In this document: positions 38,048-52,262 of the stretch, piece by piece
Position numbering within the stretch: the stretch's first letter is position 1
Layout: every line of letters begins with the position of its first letter
Source of the DNA: Dictyostelium discoideum
Taxonomy: Eukaryota
Direction of reading: 5' to 3'
Assembly: GCA_000004695.1 (NCBI GenBank)
Contig: CM000152.2
Location: 5,440,001 to 5,504,000, forward strand
Length of the DNA: 64,000 nucleotides
Position numbers and translations under genes: made by a program
The notes under the pieces: generated by a model
The model's input: the letters and a program-made list of their open reading frames with translations, nothing else
The model's database searches: none
Told to the model about the DNA's origin: nothing

Positions 38048-39370
38048 TTAAAATATTGAAATTAATAAAAGAGATAATAATAATAAATAATTTAAAATTA
38101 TTACAGTTGAATTTGAACTTTCATCTGGTGCACCATATGTTAAAGAGTATGCACTATTTTCAGTTGAAATTGAAAAAAGAGATGAATCAACTTGTTCATT
38201 TTTAATTTGAAATGAAAAACTTGAGAAATTACCAGTTAAACTTCCAATTGATTTAATTAATGTATATTTTTTATTATTTTTTGGTTGATAATCTAAACTT
38301 ACTGATAAACTTCCTTTTAATACAGTATTATGAGAAACAATTACTAAAGGAGATCCAACACCAACTGTTTTCATTGTTGTTTGTGGACCTAATAGTAAAG
38401 ACCCTTCGATATTGGTTTGAACATGATCTGATTGAACTAACAATGATGTTCCAGTAATATTTAAATCACCATTAATTGTATTTAATCCTGAAATTGTTAA
38501 TGAACCACCATTTCCATTTAAATTTGAATTAATTGTTGATGATGTTATTGAAAGTTGTGAAGTTGATCCAATTGATAAAGAATTAACACTATTTAATTTT
38601 GTTTTTAAAATTGAAATTTGATAATTTAAATTAATATTTTGGTCAATTGGTGATGTTGATGAGGATGAGGATGAGGATGAGGATGATGAATTTGATGGTT
38701 TTTTACCAAAATTTGAAACATCTAAACCATTTAATGTTAATTTACTTCCACTTTTAAAATTAATACCACTTTCAACTAGACGAATTGAACCAATTGTATT
38801 GTCACCTGAAAAAGTAACAGTTGGTTGATCGGCAAATTGTCCAGTTCCAATAATATTTGATTGAATTATTTGAGTAATTTTTGAATTTGAAACTTCGACA
38901 TTTATTAAACCACCAATAATATTTAAAGTTTTGAAAGTGGATGATGATATGGTTCCACTTGAAGGATTTGGATAACTTTGATATAAAAATGAAACTACTC
39001 CATTACCACTTACATTTGATAAACCAACATTTTGACTATTAATATTTAAATTACCATTAACAATTACATTTGAAATTGTTCCATTCAATAAATTTGAGTT
39101 GAGTACTTTTAGTGTTGAACCAAGTACTACTGAACCAAATGTACTATCCTTAATTACAACCAAATCCACTTCTACCACTGACCTTGATCCAATATTAATT
39201 ACTACATTATCACCAGATTGTGGTAATGCTCCACCAATCCAATTGGTAGCCTTACTCCATTGACATGGTGTTGTTATACAATCAATTTGATCATTGAATA
39301 AAACTTGAGAAGAATTTATTAATTTAAAAATAGAAATTATAATAAAAAGTAATAATAATTTAATATTCAT
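38048..39370 (-). CDS. Secreted, probably GPI-anchored Ser/Asn/Gly-rich surface glycoprotein
   Basis: There is an N-terminal signal peptide (MNIKLLLLFIIISIFKLINSSQ) and a C-terminal hydrophobic tail (VIILNYLLLLSLLLISIF) after small residues. Many N-x-S/T sites and a poly-Ser block are present. Repetitive NL(N)G.. segments suggest beta-helix-like repeats. Confidence 0.6.
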   Translation of the reverse strand: MNIKLLLLFIIISIFKLINSSQVLFNDQIDCITTPCQWSKATNWIGGALPQSGDNVVINIGSRSVVEVDLVVIKDSTFGSVVLGSTLKVLNSNLLNGTISNVIVNGNLNINSQNVGLSNVSGNGVVSFLYQSYPNPSSGTISSSTFKTLNIIGGLINVEVSNSKITQIIQSNIIGTGQFADQPTVTFSGDNTIGSIRLVESGINFKSGSKLTLNGLDVSNFGKKPSNSSSSSSSSSSSTSPIDQNINLNYQISILKTKLNSVNSLSIGSTSQLSITSSTINSNLNGNGGSLTISGLNTINGDLNITGTSLLVQSDHVQTNIEGSLLLGPQTTMKTVGVGSPLVIVSHNTVLKGSLSVSLDYQPKNNKKYTLIKSIGSLTGNFSSFSFQIKNEQVDSSLFSISTENSAYSLTYGAPDESSNSTVIILNYLLLLSLLLISIF

Positions 39371-39723: not shown

Positions 39724-40571
39724 TTAATAATTATAATGTAAATAGGGGAACCAATTAAGTGTCATATTTGAAATGATGAAAACAATGATAATATCTGCAC
39801 CACAATGAGCGAGAATAGAGGCTAATGGACCAACATACTTAGTTATATATACAAATAACCAACCACCAATAAATACTATTAATGTAGCCAAAGAACTAAT
39901 ATAAACATTATAAAATATTATTAATACCGCCTAAATTGTTTAAAAAAAAAAAAAAAAAAAAAATTGTCAATAATTTTTTAAAAAAAAATAAATAAATAAA
40001 TAAATAAATAAAAATAAAGTAAAGTATACATACAAAATGATAAAGTGCATAAAAAGTTGTTATAACAAGTCTATGTAATTTTGAAGAACCAAAAGTATTT
40101 GGCAAAAAACAACGCCACCACCATTCTTCAATGATTGGATTTACTAAGCTAAAATAAATATAAAAAATATATTCCATATTGAATGAATAATTTAATAACC
40201 CATATTGTGTTAATTTCGTAATTGTATTTGGTATAAACTATAATGATAATAATAATAATAAAAACTATTAGTTAAAATTATACCTTTTTTAAAGAGAAAA
40301 AAAAAAAAATACATACATCAGAAAATAAATAATAAAATAAACTTCCAAATGATAAACTAATTATTAGTATTATTAAACCAATAATGAATTGTGGTATTGA
40401 AAATAGAGATTTAAATATTTTAGTTGGTAATGACATTGGAGGTTCAAATTGTTGTTCTTTTGAATATATATCAATTAAATAATCTGTATCATTTATATCA
40501 TCAATGTCATTATAAATTGCTAAATTACTTTTATATTGTTTTCCACCAATTGATATATTATCATTCCTATA

Positions 40572-45188: not shown

Positions 45189-46044
45189 TTAGAAACCAAA
45201 GTATCTTGATTTTCTTGGGCAATCTCTATTCCAACCTTCTTGACAAAGTGGAGTGACACCCCATTTGGAACCAGTGCTACATAATGATGGGAAGAAGACG
45301 TCGGTTTCTTCTTGGAGTACACCACCAATGACAACAGTGTTCTTGTTAATACCATAACCTAATTTGAAGATTTCAACAGCATCCATTGGTAATTGGTTGA
45401 AACAACGTTCACAATACATGTTAGAGACATAGGAAGCAAAGATAACTTTATCGAATTTAGCCCACATGATTGCAGCAGAGCACATTGGGCATGGTTCACC
45501 GGTGGTGTACAAGTAATAACCTTCCCAGGTGGTCTTACCATAAAGTTCTGAACAATTTAAAATAGCACGGATCTCACCATGTAAAATTGCAGATGTTTGG
45601 CCAGTATTTACACCAGTACACATTAAAGTACCATTGGAGTGGAAGATGGCAGCACCGAATTTTTGGTTAATTGCTTTGGTTACATCGATTGCAACTCTCA
45701 TATTGGTTTCATGGAAGACTTTATCGGCTGGTGATAAATCTTCAGCTTTAATTAAATCAGCCTAAAATAAATAAATTTTTAAAAAATTAAAAATGTTAAT
45801 AAAAATAAAAAAATAATTTATTTCCAATAGGAAAAAAAAAAAAGTAAACTGTTTTAAAGTAAACTGTATAAAAAAAAAAGTAAACTGTTTAAAAAAAAAA
45901 AAAAGTAAACTGTTTAAAAAAAAAAAAACTTACTGGTGCAACTGGGAAGTATGGAGATTTTGGACAGTTATTGTCACGGTGAGCTAAAGCGGAAGTTGCA
46001 AGAGCAAAGATAACTAAAATGATTGATAATAAGTTTAATCTCAT
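45189..46044 (-). CDS. Secreted cytidine/deoxycytidylate-deaminase-fold (CDA/TadA-like) zinc deaminase; exons 46044..45934 (signal peptide) and 45761..45189; intron 45933..45762
   Basis: The zinc-binding motifs are HGEIRAI (H[AC/G]E) and PCPMCSAAI (PCxxC). The upstream exon MRLNLLSIILVIFALATSALAHRDNNCPKSPYFPVAP ends |GTAAGT. The acceptor TTTTAG|GCTGAT is in frame. The C-terminal tail is Cys-rich (LCSTGSKWGVTPLCQEGWNRDC). Confidence 0.75.
45831..45928. repeat. Tandem repeat (A)n-GTAAACTGTTT, 4 copies, inside the deaminase gene intron
   Basis: gtaaactgt occurs at 45844, 45859, 45880 and 45905, each copy preceded by an A-run. Confidence 0.8.
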
Positions 46045-47366: not shown

Positions 47367-49804
47367 ATGAAAATTAAAAATTTTATTTATTTTTTAATAT
47401 ATTTTATATTTTTATTTAAAGTTATAAATGGACAAAATAAAACATGTAAAATTTCAGTACTTTTATCTGGTGATAAATCAGATCTTGGTTATAATTATAT
47501 GATGAATGAAGCAAGAGTTTTAGCCGAAAGTCAATTACATATGTATCCATTTTCAATTTATTATGAACATTTGGAAGAATCAACTTTAGAAGCTGAACAT
47601 GCTATTCAAGATTCAGTTGATAAAGGTGCAAATTTAATAGTTGTTTCATCAGTAATTCATTTTTCATTGGGTGTAAAATATGCAACAAAGTATAAGGATG
47701 AACCAATTTATTGGATTATTAGAGGTAGTAAATTAGTACCAACTTTACCAAAAGTTGTAATTTTAAATTTTAATTCATTCGAACTTCATTATCTTTTGGG
47801 TTATTATGCTGGTCTTGCAACAAAAACTGGTGTAGTTGGTTTCGTTTCACCAGGTATTGGAATTAATACATTATCATGTGATAATAGTTTTTATATTGGT
47901 GCTAAATATGCTAGATCAAATATTACATTCCTTGACATTCATACTGGTTCATGGTATAATCCAGAAGTTTCTTATAAAGCAGCTCAAAAATTAATTGAAA
48001 ATGGTGCAGATGTAATTGGTATGTCTCAAGACGATATGTCCGTTCAAAAAGCTATTATGGATTCCGGTGGTCTTGGTCTTGGTGTTACTGGTTATCCTGG
48101 TCATTATCAATTTGGTTCAGATGTTGCTTATAGTTATTTAACCAATTGGACAAATCTTTTCATCACTTATGCAAACCACGTTATCAATGATGATTGGCCA
48201 GCATTTGATTCATTTTTTACAAATTTATCAAGAAAAGATGCAATCTTTATGGATGATTTTAGTTTTAGAGTACCAATTGATATTCAAACAAAAACTAAAA
48301 TTGAATTAGAAAATTTAATGAATACTTCATATGCACCATATAAATCTGATCCAATTCTTGAATCAATTGGTTTACAATTTTCTGGTAATTGGATTAATGA
48401 TACTCAATTTAGAGCAAATACTAAAATTTTACCATCATATGGTGATTCAACTGTAATTTATTTTGGTTTATATACAATTCCAATTGAATTTGTAAAGTAT
48501 AATTAATTTTTTATAAAAAAAAAAATAAAAAATAATAATAATAATTTATTAATATATAATTTTTTTTTTTTTTTTAGGTTGATTATCCAGAATCATTAAA
48601 AATTGGTGTTACAGTTGTTTCAGGATTTTGTATATTTTTATGTTTAATTTCAATGATAATTGTTATTAAATTTAAAGAAGCAAAAGTTATTAAATCATCA
48701 AGTCCAATATTTTGTTTATTAATTTTATTTGGTTGTATTGTAATTTTTGTTGGGTGTATAATGTTTGCAAGATCACCAACCGATGGTAGTTGTCGTAGTA
48801 GAGTTTGGTTATTAAGTTTGGGGTATACAATTTTCTTGGGTAATTTAATGGTAAAGAATTGGAGAATTTGGTTATTATTTGATAATCCAAAATTAAAGAA
48901 ACGTGCAATTACAAATTGGAAATTATATCCATGGGTAAGTGGTATTGTTATAATTGATATTGTAATTCTCTCAATTTGGCAAGCATTGGGTGATATTGTA
49001 GCTGAATCTAGAACTGGTATTGACTCATTAACAAAATATGAATATAGAAATGTTTGTGCATCAAGTGATCAAGGTTCAATTGCACTTTATTTGCTATTGG
49101 TATTCCATGGTTTAATTCTATTGGTTGCATGTTTTATTTCATTTAAAATTAAAGTTGTCGATATTGAAGAATTTAATGAATCAAAACCAATTACTACCAG
49201 TGTTTATATTATCACATTTTGTTTATTCATTGTAATTCCAATTATGGTTTCGTCACCAACCGTTACAACTCAAACTACAATCATTTGTATTTGTGCTTTA
49301 ATTACAACAATGTTAAGTATCATTCTATTGTTTGGTACTAAATTCTTTAAAATGATAACAGTTGGTTTAGAACTTGGTCAAACTTTTGTAACAAGTACAA
49401 AATCTTCATCACATTCTCAAAGAACAAAATCTTCCAAATCTTCAAATGGTTCTGGTCCAAAAATTAATGGTTTCGGTGGTAATGTTTTAAATCTTGATGA
49501 TGATTCCGATGAAATATCTTCTGAAAAAGAAAAAAAGAAACCAATTGAATCAAATCCAAAAGATCATATGGCTGTTTTTACAAGTGATGAAGAAACAAGT
49601 AAAGCAAGTAAATTTAGTTCTGAACAATTTAGTAGAGAACAAATAAATGATAATATTATTCTTGAAAATAATAATGATAATGAAGAAAAACAAAAAGATG
49701 AAGAAGAAATAAAAGAAGAAAAACTTTTAGTATCAGAAATTCAAGCAAAGAGATTATCACTTGAACAAAATGGTCAAACTGAAATTGATTCGAATGATGT
49801 TTAA
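47367..49804 (+). CDS. Family-C (metabotropic glutamate/GABA-B-like) GPCR of the Dictyostelium Grl type: N-terminal periplasmic-binding-protein (BMP-like) domain plus 7TM; exons 47367..48491 and 48578..49804
   Basis: A signal peptide is followed by a PBP-like ectodomain (ISVLLSGDKSDLGYNYMMNEARV...). After the intron (GTAAAG...TTTTAG, 86 nt) come seven hydrophobic helices (IFCLLILFGCIVIFVGCIMFA ... WLLSLGYTIFLGNLMVKNWRIW ...). The C-terminal tail is acidic and Ser-rich. Confidence 0.75.
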
Positions 49805-50515: not shown

Positions 50516-51077
50516 ATGTCAATTAAATCAATCACAGCCTTAATTTTTGTTGTTTTATGTATTGCAATTTCAAGTGCCGATATTTGGAGCTATTGTCCAG
50601 GAAATATTGATGCAACTTTTACAATTGATACACTCACAGTTTCACCAGATCCACCATTAATTGGTAAAGCAGCTTTCGTCAAATTAGCAGGTTCTTTAAG
50701 TGATGAAGTTACTGAAGGTGAATCAGTCTTTAGTCTCCAATATTACATTGATGGTGCTTGGAGAAATCTTCCAACTTTCAAAAACGATGTTTGCAAATTA
50801 CTCTCTTGTCCAGTTCAACCAGGTCCACTCGTTTTTAACACTACTATTAATGTCCCATTCATTACTCCACCAGTAAGTTTTTAAAATCTAAACACTTTTT
50901 TTGTTTTTCTTTTCTTCTTTTCTTTTACTACAAATAATATTCAAATTACTAATAAAAAAAAAAAAAATTAAATTAAATTAACAGGGTCAATATCAAGGTA
51001 CTCTTCAATTAACTGACCAAAATAACAAAAACATCTCATGTTTAACTTTTGCAACCACCTTAGCTTATTCAATCTAA
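50516..51077 (+). CDS. ML-domain (MD-2-related lipid recognition, Npc2-like) secreted protein, copy 1; exons 50516..50872 and 50985..51077
   Basis: There is a signal peptide and the conserved Cys pattern (YCPG...CKLLSCPVQPGP...SC). The intron is GTAAGT...TTAACAG (112 nt). Confidence 0.75.
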
Positions 51078-51824: not shown

Positions 51825-52262
51825 ATGATAAAAACTATATTATTATTATTAATAAATTTTATGTTAATTTTGATTGTAAATGGTGATATATGGAATTATT
51901 GTGACGGTAATATTAATCCAACATTTAAAATTAATAAACTTACATTATTACCAGATCCACCATTAGTTGGAAAAGAAGTTACAATAAGTTTAGAAGGATC
52001 ATTAAATGAACAAATAACATCAGGTTCATCAATATTTAATGTTGCATTCTTTATTAATGGTGGTTGGCGTCAACTTCCAACATTCCATAATGATATTTGT
52101 AAAGTTTTAAGTTGTCCAGTTTCTGCAGGTCCATTCACTTATTCAACTTCTATTAAAGTTCCAATCTTCACTCCACATGGTCAATATAAAGGTCAATTAA
52201 CATTAACTGATCAATCAAATAGAAATGTTACTTGTCTTACTTTTCAAACTTATTTAAAATAA
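51825..52262 (+). CDS. ML-domain (Npc2-like) secreted protein, copy 2; intronless paralog
   Basis: It encodes 145 aa with the same Cys framework (YCDG...CKVLSCPVSAGP...TCLTF). It is about 40% identical to copy 1, and it is continuous across the position where copy 1 has its intron (FTPH-GQYKG). Confidence 0.8.
   Translation: MIKTILLLLINFMLILIVNGDIWNYCDGNINPTFKINKLTLLPDPPLVGKEVTISLEGSLNEQITSGSSIFNVAFFINGGWRQLPTFHNDICKVLSCPVSAGPFTYSTSIKVPIFTPHGQYKGQLTLTDQSNRNVTCLTFQTYLK

Follow-up and report, generated by a model that had tools for sequence, protein, structure and literature searches.

A dictyostelid family of putatively exported zinc deaminases and its fruiting-body member DDB_G0282171

Deaminases of the CDA fold that act on free bases and nucleosides are, to our knowledge, otherwise cytosolic enzymes of housekeeping or salvage. 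In the guanine deaminase GuaD of Bacillus subtilis, Asp114 is reportedly important for catalysis and the C-terminal Tyr156 closes the neighbouring active site; TadA, an RNA enzyme of the same fold, has a basic C-terminal helix, and eukaryotes possess genuine cytosolic ADAT enzymes as separate proteins. Dictyostelium also has a folate deaminase activity, known since the 1970s–80s, which occurs in secreted and cell-surface form, has a native molecular mass near 40,000 and in 2021 was still described as “identified biochemically but is yet to be cloned” (a search of the later literature found no cloning), and pterin deaminase activity has been reported from P. violaceum, D. discoideum and D. lacteum. 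Here we describe the gene DDB_G0282171, which lies on the minus strand of a 64-kb stretch of Dictyostelium discoideum DNA (assembly GCA_000004695.1, contig CM000152.2, forward-strand positions 5,440,001 to 5,504,000; hereafter “the window,” numbered 1 to 64,000). From its sequence, its relatives and its published expression, we propose that its product is probably an exported zinc deaminase of a small extracellular heteroaromatic amine, with the matrix of culminant and fruiting body as its site of action.

Window positions 45189–46044 are the exact stop codon-to-ATG span of a single two-exon gene (Table 1), with a GC content of 38.7% in the exons and 11.6% in the intron, against 23% for the window. 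Its spliced product of 227 residues is identical, residue for residue, to that of D. discoideum AX4 DDB_G0282171 (XP_640344.1/EAL66365.1/Q54SW5), which the existing annotation labels hypothetical, noting only a deaminase domain of the CMP/dCMP type. The D. firmibasis orthologue, also of 227 residues, is 97% identical over its full length, and that of D. purpureum carries a 76-nt intron at the identical codon boundary (…VPP/SDL…). Because the annotated product matches exactly and the intron position is kept in D. purpureum, we consider that the signal-peptide exon genuinely belongs to the gene. An earlier reading of the window from its letters alone (the sequence-only reading) had already proposed that a separate first exon, spliced to the deaminase open reading frame (ORF), supplies a signal peptide, and this is borne out by the exact match, by the conserved intron and by leaders predicted by rule-based analysis across the family. 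The same reading took the gene to be native to Dictyostelium and not recent contamination, and this too is right. No second family copy was found within the window by tblastn, and a full-text literature search turned up no paper that names DDB_G0282171, Q54SW5 or any of the paralogues in its main text.

The product is a CDA-fold zinc deaminase, as had been claimed from the letters. Specifically, its PF00383 score, an HGE motif at residues 98–100, a PCPMC motif at residues 127–131 and its modelled fold together constitute the zinc-binding signature of the cytidine/deoxycytidylate deaminase superfamily, and in an alignment of 121 homologues H98, E100, C128 and C131 are invariant and G99 is nearly so. 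An AlphaFold2 (AF2) model built on the family alignment has a mean predicted local distance difference test score (pLDDT) of 89 and a predicted template modelling score (pTM) of 0.82, and is confident except at the C-terminal end, where even the conserved SRYFGF end motif falls below a pLDDT of 50. When this model was compared with known folds, the scores were highest for TadA (17.6), the Arabidopsis guanosine deaminase GSDA (16.0), the NE0047 guanine deaminase (15.3) and the yeast cytosine deaminase FCY1 (14.7), followed by RibD (14.3), the domain-swapped GuaD (13.3), the APOBECs (about 7) and the toxin deaminase SsdA (4.9), and the Foldseek ranking agrees. By sequence, the best match in the PDB is GuaD (1WKQ/1TIY), whether the search starts from the single protein (E = 1.4e-9) or from the family profile (E = 2.9e-25, 92.5 bits), although with a small margin over TadA (86.6 bits for the profile). 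The predicted fold and these matches place the protein in the TadA/GuaD/GSDA/FCY1 branch, far from the toxin deaminases; the fold comparison does not discriminate between adenine-, guanine- and cytosine-type specificity. The resemblance to TadA and guanine deaminase seen in the sequence-only reading is thus confirmed, while the resemblance to dCMP deaminase that it listed beside them is remote.

Features surrounding this catalytic domain suggest a protein destined for the secretory pathway. In a rule-based analysis, the leader (MRLNLLSIILVIFALATSALA, followed by HRDNN) has a basic n-region (R2) and a hydrophobic core of 14–19 residues with a mean Kyte–Doolittle value of 3.5, and its predicted cleavage site lies between residues 21 and 22, where A19-L-A21 ahead of H22 satisfies the -3/-1 small-residue rule; in the alignment its sequence varies and its hydrophobicity is kept across all orthologues. 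The mature chain so predicted has 206 residues, a mass of 22,974 Da and an isoelectric point (pI) of 6.5. Eight cysteines beyond those that bind zinc are spread along it (C27, C85, C107, C154, C157, C198, C210 and C218), such that nearly all dictyostelid members have 10 cysteines in the mature chain, the extra eight being absent from bacterial relatives. The Cys-rich tail noticed from the letters is therefore real (C198, C210, C218) but is only one part of a set that extends over the whole mature chain. Two N-glycosylation sequons, N80-G-T and N106-C-S (of the NC[ST] type), are likewise kept in dictyostelids and missing from bacterial relatives. Leader, even number of extra cysteines and sequons all fit, and together support, the prediction of a protein directed to the endoplasmic reticulum (ER); the cleavage site, the glycosylation and the disulfides are each predicted on this basis.

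The same design recurs throughout a gene family. D. discoideum has at least seven members in two ancient subfamilies, one of short Cys-tail proteins (DDB_G0282171, DDB_G0272030, Q8T1Z7 and DDB_G0272442) and one whose members are fused to a C-terminal cellulose-binding module, CBM49 (DDB_G0292096, DDB_G0292090 and DDB_G0277355; PF09478, E = 4e-17 and 5e-16 in P0013 and P0014). The latter subfamily is found in Dictyostelium, Polysphondylium, Cavenderia and Tieghemostelium, and has a Heterostelium member without the module. Every dictyostelid homologue with a complete N-terminus begins with a signal-peptide-like sequence, in both subfamilies, and the catalytic motifs are intact in the full-length family models. 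In members from A. subglobosum (P0015) and T. lacteum (P0172), the C-terminal tail is hydrophobic and looks like a glycosylphosphatidylinositol (GPI) or transmembrane anchor. The family thus comprises three architectures—soluble, cellulose-tethered and membrane-tailed—all of which would put the catalytic domain outside the cell, and we regard this as the strongest argument for an extracellular function. As to the gene models themselves, those of AX4 for DDB_G0292090 (P0181, 168 aa) and DDB_G0277355 (P0161, 299 aa) appear truncated or mis-spliced, and versions of 321–322 aa in newer D. discoideum assemblies (P0183, P0184) regain the signal peptide and the PCxxC motif.

In a neighbour-joining (NJ) tree with 50 bootstraps, of the kind that the sequence-only reading had proposed as a check, the dictyostelid proteins form a clade apart from their bacterial relatives (46/50), within which the two subfamilies are recovered in 48 and 50 of the 50 replicates. 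By these sequences the family is monophyletic and dictyostelid-wide, and the bootstrapped tree implies that the duplication into two subfamilies is older than the radiation of the sampled genera. An exported deaminase in an amoeba had been called unusual, which calls for some qualification: the protein is no one-off but a member of an ancient multigene family, and about half of its closest bacterial relatives carry a twin-arginine motif. Beyond the dictyostelids, the next-best matches are a Basidiobolus protein, one metagenomic protein that is eukaryote-like and bears a signal peptide, and roughly 100 proteins from bacteria (142–200 aa, 30–40% identity). The first two of these, from Basidiobolus ranarum (P0016) and from a 904-nt metagenomic contig (P0036), are the only eukaryote-like relatives found outside the dictyostelids, and both have hydrophobic N-termini; they fall outside the dictyostelid group in the NJ tree, where an all-eukaryote clade appears in 2 of the 50 replicates, and this placement may be compatible with independent acquisitions from bacteria.

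The closest non-dictyostelid relatives are bacterial nucleoside deaminases of the twin-arginine translocation (Tat) type, about 185 aa long and matching with 34–40% identity at E values of about 1e-20. They share with the dictyostelid family W116, LYTTGEPCPMC, W137, Q160 and D191, and differ from it in having neither its eight extra cysteines and sequons nor its extensions at the two termini. A twin-arginine motif (typically in the context MLSRRTFGSL…) lies within the first 40 residues of 52 of the 103 bacterial-like sequences, the shorter ones being leaderless, and suggests that these relatives are Tat-exported. At four loci the deaminase gene directly follows, with a 2-nt gap, a gene for a small DUF2165 (PF09933) membrane protein, and in P0117 the two are fused in a single protein. 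These relatives have been auto-annotated as TadA; what our comparison brings to notice is a related clade of bacterial deaminases, so far uncharacterised, that are probably exported by the Tat pathway and are paired with DUF2165.

Published data place the dictyostelid products late in development. By mass spectrometry, DDB_G0282171 protein was found in fruiting bodies only, in both duplicates (4.5e7 and 5.6e7), with a log fold change (logFC) of +7.4 relative to all other stages (adjusted P = 4.3e-5), and was detected in neither duplicate of vegetative, aggregation or mound cells (PMC12821622). The proteins of DDB_G0272030 and of the CBM49 paralogue DDB_G0292096 were restricted to culmination and the fruiting body, and these products fall in late proteome clusters in which, per the authors, proteins with signal peptides, hydrolases and CBM49 matrix proteins are enriched (PMC12821622). 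In table S1 of that study our protein is listed under D. firmibasis KAK5584665.1, mapped to DDB_G0282171; because a D. discoideum protein appears there under a D. firmibasis accession, the search database was one of mixed species, and shared peptides could affect the amounts given for close paralogues. For a further short Cys-tail gene, DDB_G0272442, the cell-type mRNA values drawn from Kin et al. (2018) show enrichment in prestalk (17.9 transcripts per million, TPM) and cup cells (18.0 TPM), as compared with spore (5.8), stalk (1.8) and vegetative cells (0.4). The gene product is real, and the family is one of terminal differentiation.

These observations can be assembled into a conceptual model in which the 21-residue signal peptide would deliver the protein to the ER, where the mature chain of about 23 kDa would probably be N-glycosylated at N80 and N106, acquire four disulfides and, by analogy with other free-base CDA-fold deaminases, form a homodimer before being exported to accumulate in the extracellular matrix of the fruiting body, both during culmination and at maturity. 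There, a zinc-activated water (zinc held by His98, Cys128 and Cys131, with Glu100 as proton shuttle) would exchange an exocyclic amino group for oxygen, releasing ammonia or an amine from a base or nucleoside of the purine, pterin or pyrimidine type. Deployed as soluble, CBM49-cellulose-tethered and apparently membrane- or GPI-anchored forms, such enzymes would locally remove or convert a diffusible extracellular compound, which might serve as a signal, inhibit germination or be a base analogue of foreign origin; besides pterins, candidate substrates include cytokinins, discadenine, guanosine derivatives, adenosine and foreign nucleoside analogues. Given its sequence and that of its relatives, an extracellular location for DDB_G0282171 itself and a small-molecule class of substrate are most likely. 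Several considerations nonetheless weigh against this model. Proteomics of whole sorocarps does not separate what lies in the extracellular matrix from what lies in spores, in the stalk or in vesicles within cells, and vegetative cells that secrete a soluble protein would lose it to the medium, so that detection in fruiting bodies only could partly be an artefact of retention. The top structural match of the modelled fold, TadA, is an RNA enzyme, such that a polynucleotide substrate is formally possible, and the genomic context of five bacterial relatives held no clue to the substrate beyond the DUF2165 pairing, other neighbourhoods being unrelated.

Other accounts of the protein differ in where it would act and on what. 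A start at the internal M58, for instance, would give an unsecreted cytosolic nucleoside or tRNA deaminase with a merely coincidental exon upstream, and an ATG-initiated ORF of 170 aa (45701–45189) does span the whole catalytic domain; yet conservation extends to the 20 in-frame codons that precede M58 and to the whole of exon 1 (97% full-length identity in D. firmibasis), the CPxSPYF and D-L-S…HE motifs are kept across genera, the splice sites are canonical with an intron position shared with D. purpureum, and C27 of exon 1 completes the even set of eight non-zinc cysteines, so we find this reading scarcely credible. A signal peptide, of course, also leads to lysosomes, and in an organism that eats bacteria a base or nucleoside deaminase could be a lysosomal, phagosomal or ER-lumenal salvage enzyme for bases released from digested prey. 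Phagosomal action on nucleic-acid bases was indeed suggested in the sequence-only reading, but it does not survive the expression data, in that the protein is absent from feeding cells and confined to fruiting bodies, two paralogues are likewise absent early, and the vegetative mRNA value available for DDB_G0272442 is very low (0.4 TPM); cellulose-binding fusions, moreover, would make no sense in a phagosome. We therefore hold salvage to be very unlikely. Still less probable, in our judgment, is a secreted TadA-like editor or mutator of polynucleotides, directed at extracellular nucleic acids or at microbes attacking the sorus. That TadA is the top structural neighbour and that the protein reaches 36.9 bits with the Pfam MafB19-deam model, above its cut-off of 27 bits, both speak for it, although that model presumably also scores ordinary TadA-type proteins; a score of 22.7 bits against the 150-bit cut-off of the NCBIfam TadA equivalog (NF008113), which led us to reject that assignment, an acidic C-terminal helix (LQEETDVFF) and mature pI of 6.5, the lack of any delivery or immunity module and a free-base deaminase as the profile's best sequence match all speak against it. 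The suggested kinship with toxin-like deaminases fails on the same grounds: with neither delivery domain nor immunity partner, and with a fold far from that of SsdA, DDB_G0282171 was rejected as a toxin deaminase.

A more specific alternative concerns the uncloned enzyme introduced above. The family, possibly including DDB_G0282171, might be the extracellular and cell-surface pterin/folate deaminase of dictyostelids, which yields inactive 2-deamino-2-hydroxy (lumazine-type) products; free, cellulose-tethered and membrane-anchored CDA-fold enzymes would then destroy pterin attractants and morphogens and so sculpt gradients, including those of late pterin signalling. The family has members in all three species from which pterin deaminase activity was reported, supplies soluble, matrix-tethered and membrane-tailed forms to set beside a secreted and cell-surface activity, and has a mature monomer (22,974 Da) whose dimer would be of about 46 kDa. 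Its best sequence relative is a guanine deaminase, and the 2-amino-4-oxo-pterin ring resembles guanine; we further speculate that Gln160, in place of GuaD Asp114, could suit a ring nitrogen that accepts hydrogen bonds, such as pterin N8. Development also has a late requirement for pterin signalling through G-alpha-4, and enzymes expressed late would be in keeping with it. However, the four paralogues with data are late-developmental, whereas the classical activity is described from the vegetative and early-starvation stages, as acting on the attractant for growing cells; the agreement in mass between about 40 kDa and a 46-kDa dimer is loose; and such bacterial pterin deaminases as are known are members of the amidohydrolase superfamily, which is unrelated. 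Because of this late expression, we consider the family's candidate link to pterin and folate unlikely, if clearly worth stating. Were it true, these enzymes would have a role analogous to that of the phosphodiesterase PdsA for cAMP, in self-generated folate gradients and in late pterin signalling.

Among the genes that surround DDB_G0282171 (Table 1), the divergent neighbour, which starts 1.3 kb from the deaminase ATG, encodes GrlF (Q54SW3), a class C G-protein-coupled receptor with a Bmp/PnrA-like extracellular domain, of the purine-nucleoside-binding-protein type, and a 7tm_3 domain. A splice at GAATTT/GTAAAG…TTTTAG/GTTGAT gives a protein of 783 aa that exactly matches newer D. discoideum assemblies, as compared with 770 aa in the AX4 model. 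The same head-to-head pair occurs in D. firmibasis, and the contig of a D. purpureum family member shows no such receptor. We considered this neighbour as the folate receptor and rejected the idea: it is GrlF, and the adjacency is confined to close relatives. The folate receptor fAR1 we take to be GrlL, and we know of no described ligand for GrlF; the presence of a receptor of base-binding type beside a secreted base deaminase may be coincidence. Farther along lie two tandem ML-domain genes (PF02221, MD-2-related lipid-recognition), both with signal peptides, the second being DDB_G0282179, and the same ML pair stands beside a GrlF-like gene in D. firmibasis (L006 3863–5458). An ORF of 440 aa in the window has a signal-like N-terminus, a poly-Ser tract and a hydrophobic C-terminal tail, giving it the look of a GPI-anchored protein; it has no Pfam match and no exact match in the protein collection, and the real gene may be spliced differently. 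The deaminase intron itself contains a tandem repeat, which on the gene strand reads AAACAGTTTAC and is followed by a T-run.

Table 1. Positions of the deaminase gene, its protein features and its neighbours in the window, and of the bacterial DUF2165–deaminase units in their own loci
Feature	Positions	Strand	Details
Exon 1	46044–45934	minus	37 codons, MRLNLLSIILVIFALATSALAHRDNNCPKSPYFPVAP; signal peptide and first 16 mature residues, including conserved C27 (CPxSPYF)
Signal-peptide coding part	45982..46044	minus	aa 1–21, MRLNLLSIILVIFALATSALA
Intron	45933–45762	minus	172 nt, GTAAGT...TTTTAG, phase 0
Tandem repeat in intron	45856–45928		21–25-nt unit (AAAAAAAAAAGTAAACTGTTTAAAA); 2.4 copies at 100% identity, 3.1 copies at 79%
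Exon 2	45761–45189	minus	aa 38–227 and TAA stop (45189–45191)
CDA-fold deaminase domain	45435..45713	minus	aa 54–146; PF00383, E = 1.2e-17, 64 bits against a 25-bit cut-off
H98-G99-E100	45573..45581	minus	zinc-ligand histidine and catalytic glutamate
P127-C128-P129-M130-C131	45480..45494	minus	both zinc-ligand cysteines
C-terminal extension	45192..45290	minus	aa 195–227, C198/C210/C218, terminal SRYFGF; not in bacterial relatives; pLDDT about 41–73
440-aa ORF	38048–39370	minus	
GrlF	47367–48491 and 48578–49804	plus	two exons
ML-domain gene, first	50516–50884	plus	
ML-domain gene, second	51825–52262	plus	DDB_G0282179
DUF2165–deaminase unit, L001	7510–8558		
DUF2165–deaminase unit, L002	7510–8558		
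DUF2165–deaminase unit, L003	131–1179		
DUF2165–deaminase unit, L011	6510–7561		

If the model of an exported small-molecule deaminase is right, a catalytic domain has been moved outside the cell across a whole eukaryotic lineage, and has been made stable by disulfides and glycans, duplicated, fused to a cellulose-binding module and put to use in the fruiting body. This would point to an unrecognised extracellular metabolism of bases, nucleosides or pterins in the terminal development of Dictyostelium, and the candidate substrates tie it to several orphan problems (e.g., pterin/folate inactivation, germination inhibitors of the cytokinin or discadenine type, foreign nucleoside analogues). For research on self-generated gradients, a shortlist of seven genes in a tractable organism makes the identity of the folate/pterin deaminase directly testable.

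Among the described enzymes, GuaD shares with the family the N-terminal HE..M..A helix, the Asn before the zinc motif, H-x-E, the TxxEPCPMC block and the helix that follows strand 4 and ends in a G/C-F/I-x-D/Q loop. GuaD, however, is without signal peptide, extra cysteines or Cys-rich tail, and its Asp114, in the GFDD loop, aligns to a family Gln160 that is at least 90% conserved, F-D-D becoming F-N-Q in dictyostelids; lacking an acidic residue at this position, the protein was rejected as an orthodox GuaD. From TadA and ADAT2 it differs in that its C-terminal helix is acidic, and the possibility that it is a cytosolic TadA was rejected since family-wide signal peptides and the CBM49 modules or GPI-like tails of paralogues would deny it access to tRNA. 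Arabidopsis GSDA, Nitrosomonas NE0047 and yeast FCY1 are all cytosolic and about 20% identical in sequence, and the C-terminal elements that specify their substrates are not confidently mappable onto the low-confidence C-terminus of the DDB_G0282171 model.

Among deaminases that leave the cell, the polymorphic-toxin enzymes (MafB19, DddA and SsdA) and the putatively exported DDB_G0282171 have a deaminase superfamily in common, but the toxins come with a delivery domain and an immunity partner, in place of which the Dictyostelium protein has a eukaryotic ER signal peptide. The classical folate/pterin deaminase of Dictyostelium is likewise extracellular, in soluble and surface-bound forms, comes from the same taxa and has a size compatible with a dimer; its activity is described for cells in growth and early starvation, whereas those family members for which data exist appear at culmination and in the fruiting body. 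Relative to all of these systems, the chemistry is of a known kind, and what is new is the putative extracellular deployment, the adaptation through cysteines and glycans, the fusion to CBM49 and the restriction to the fruiting body.

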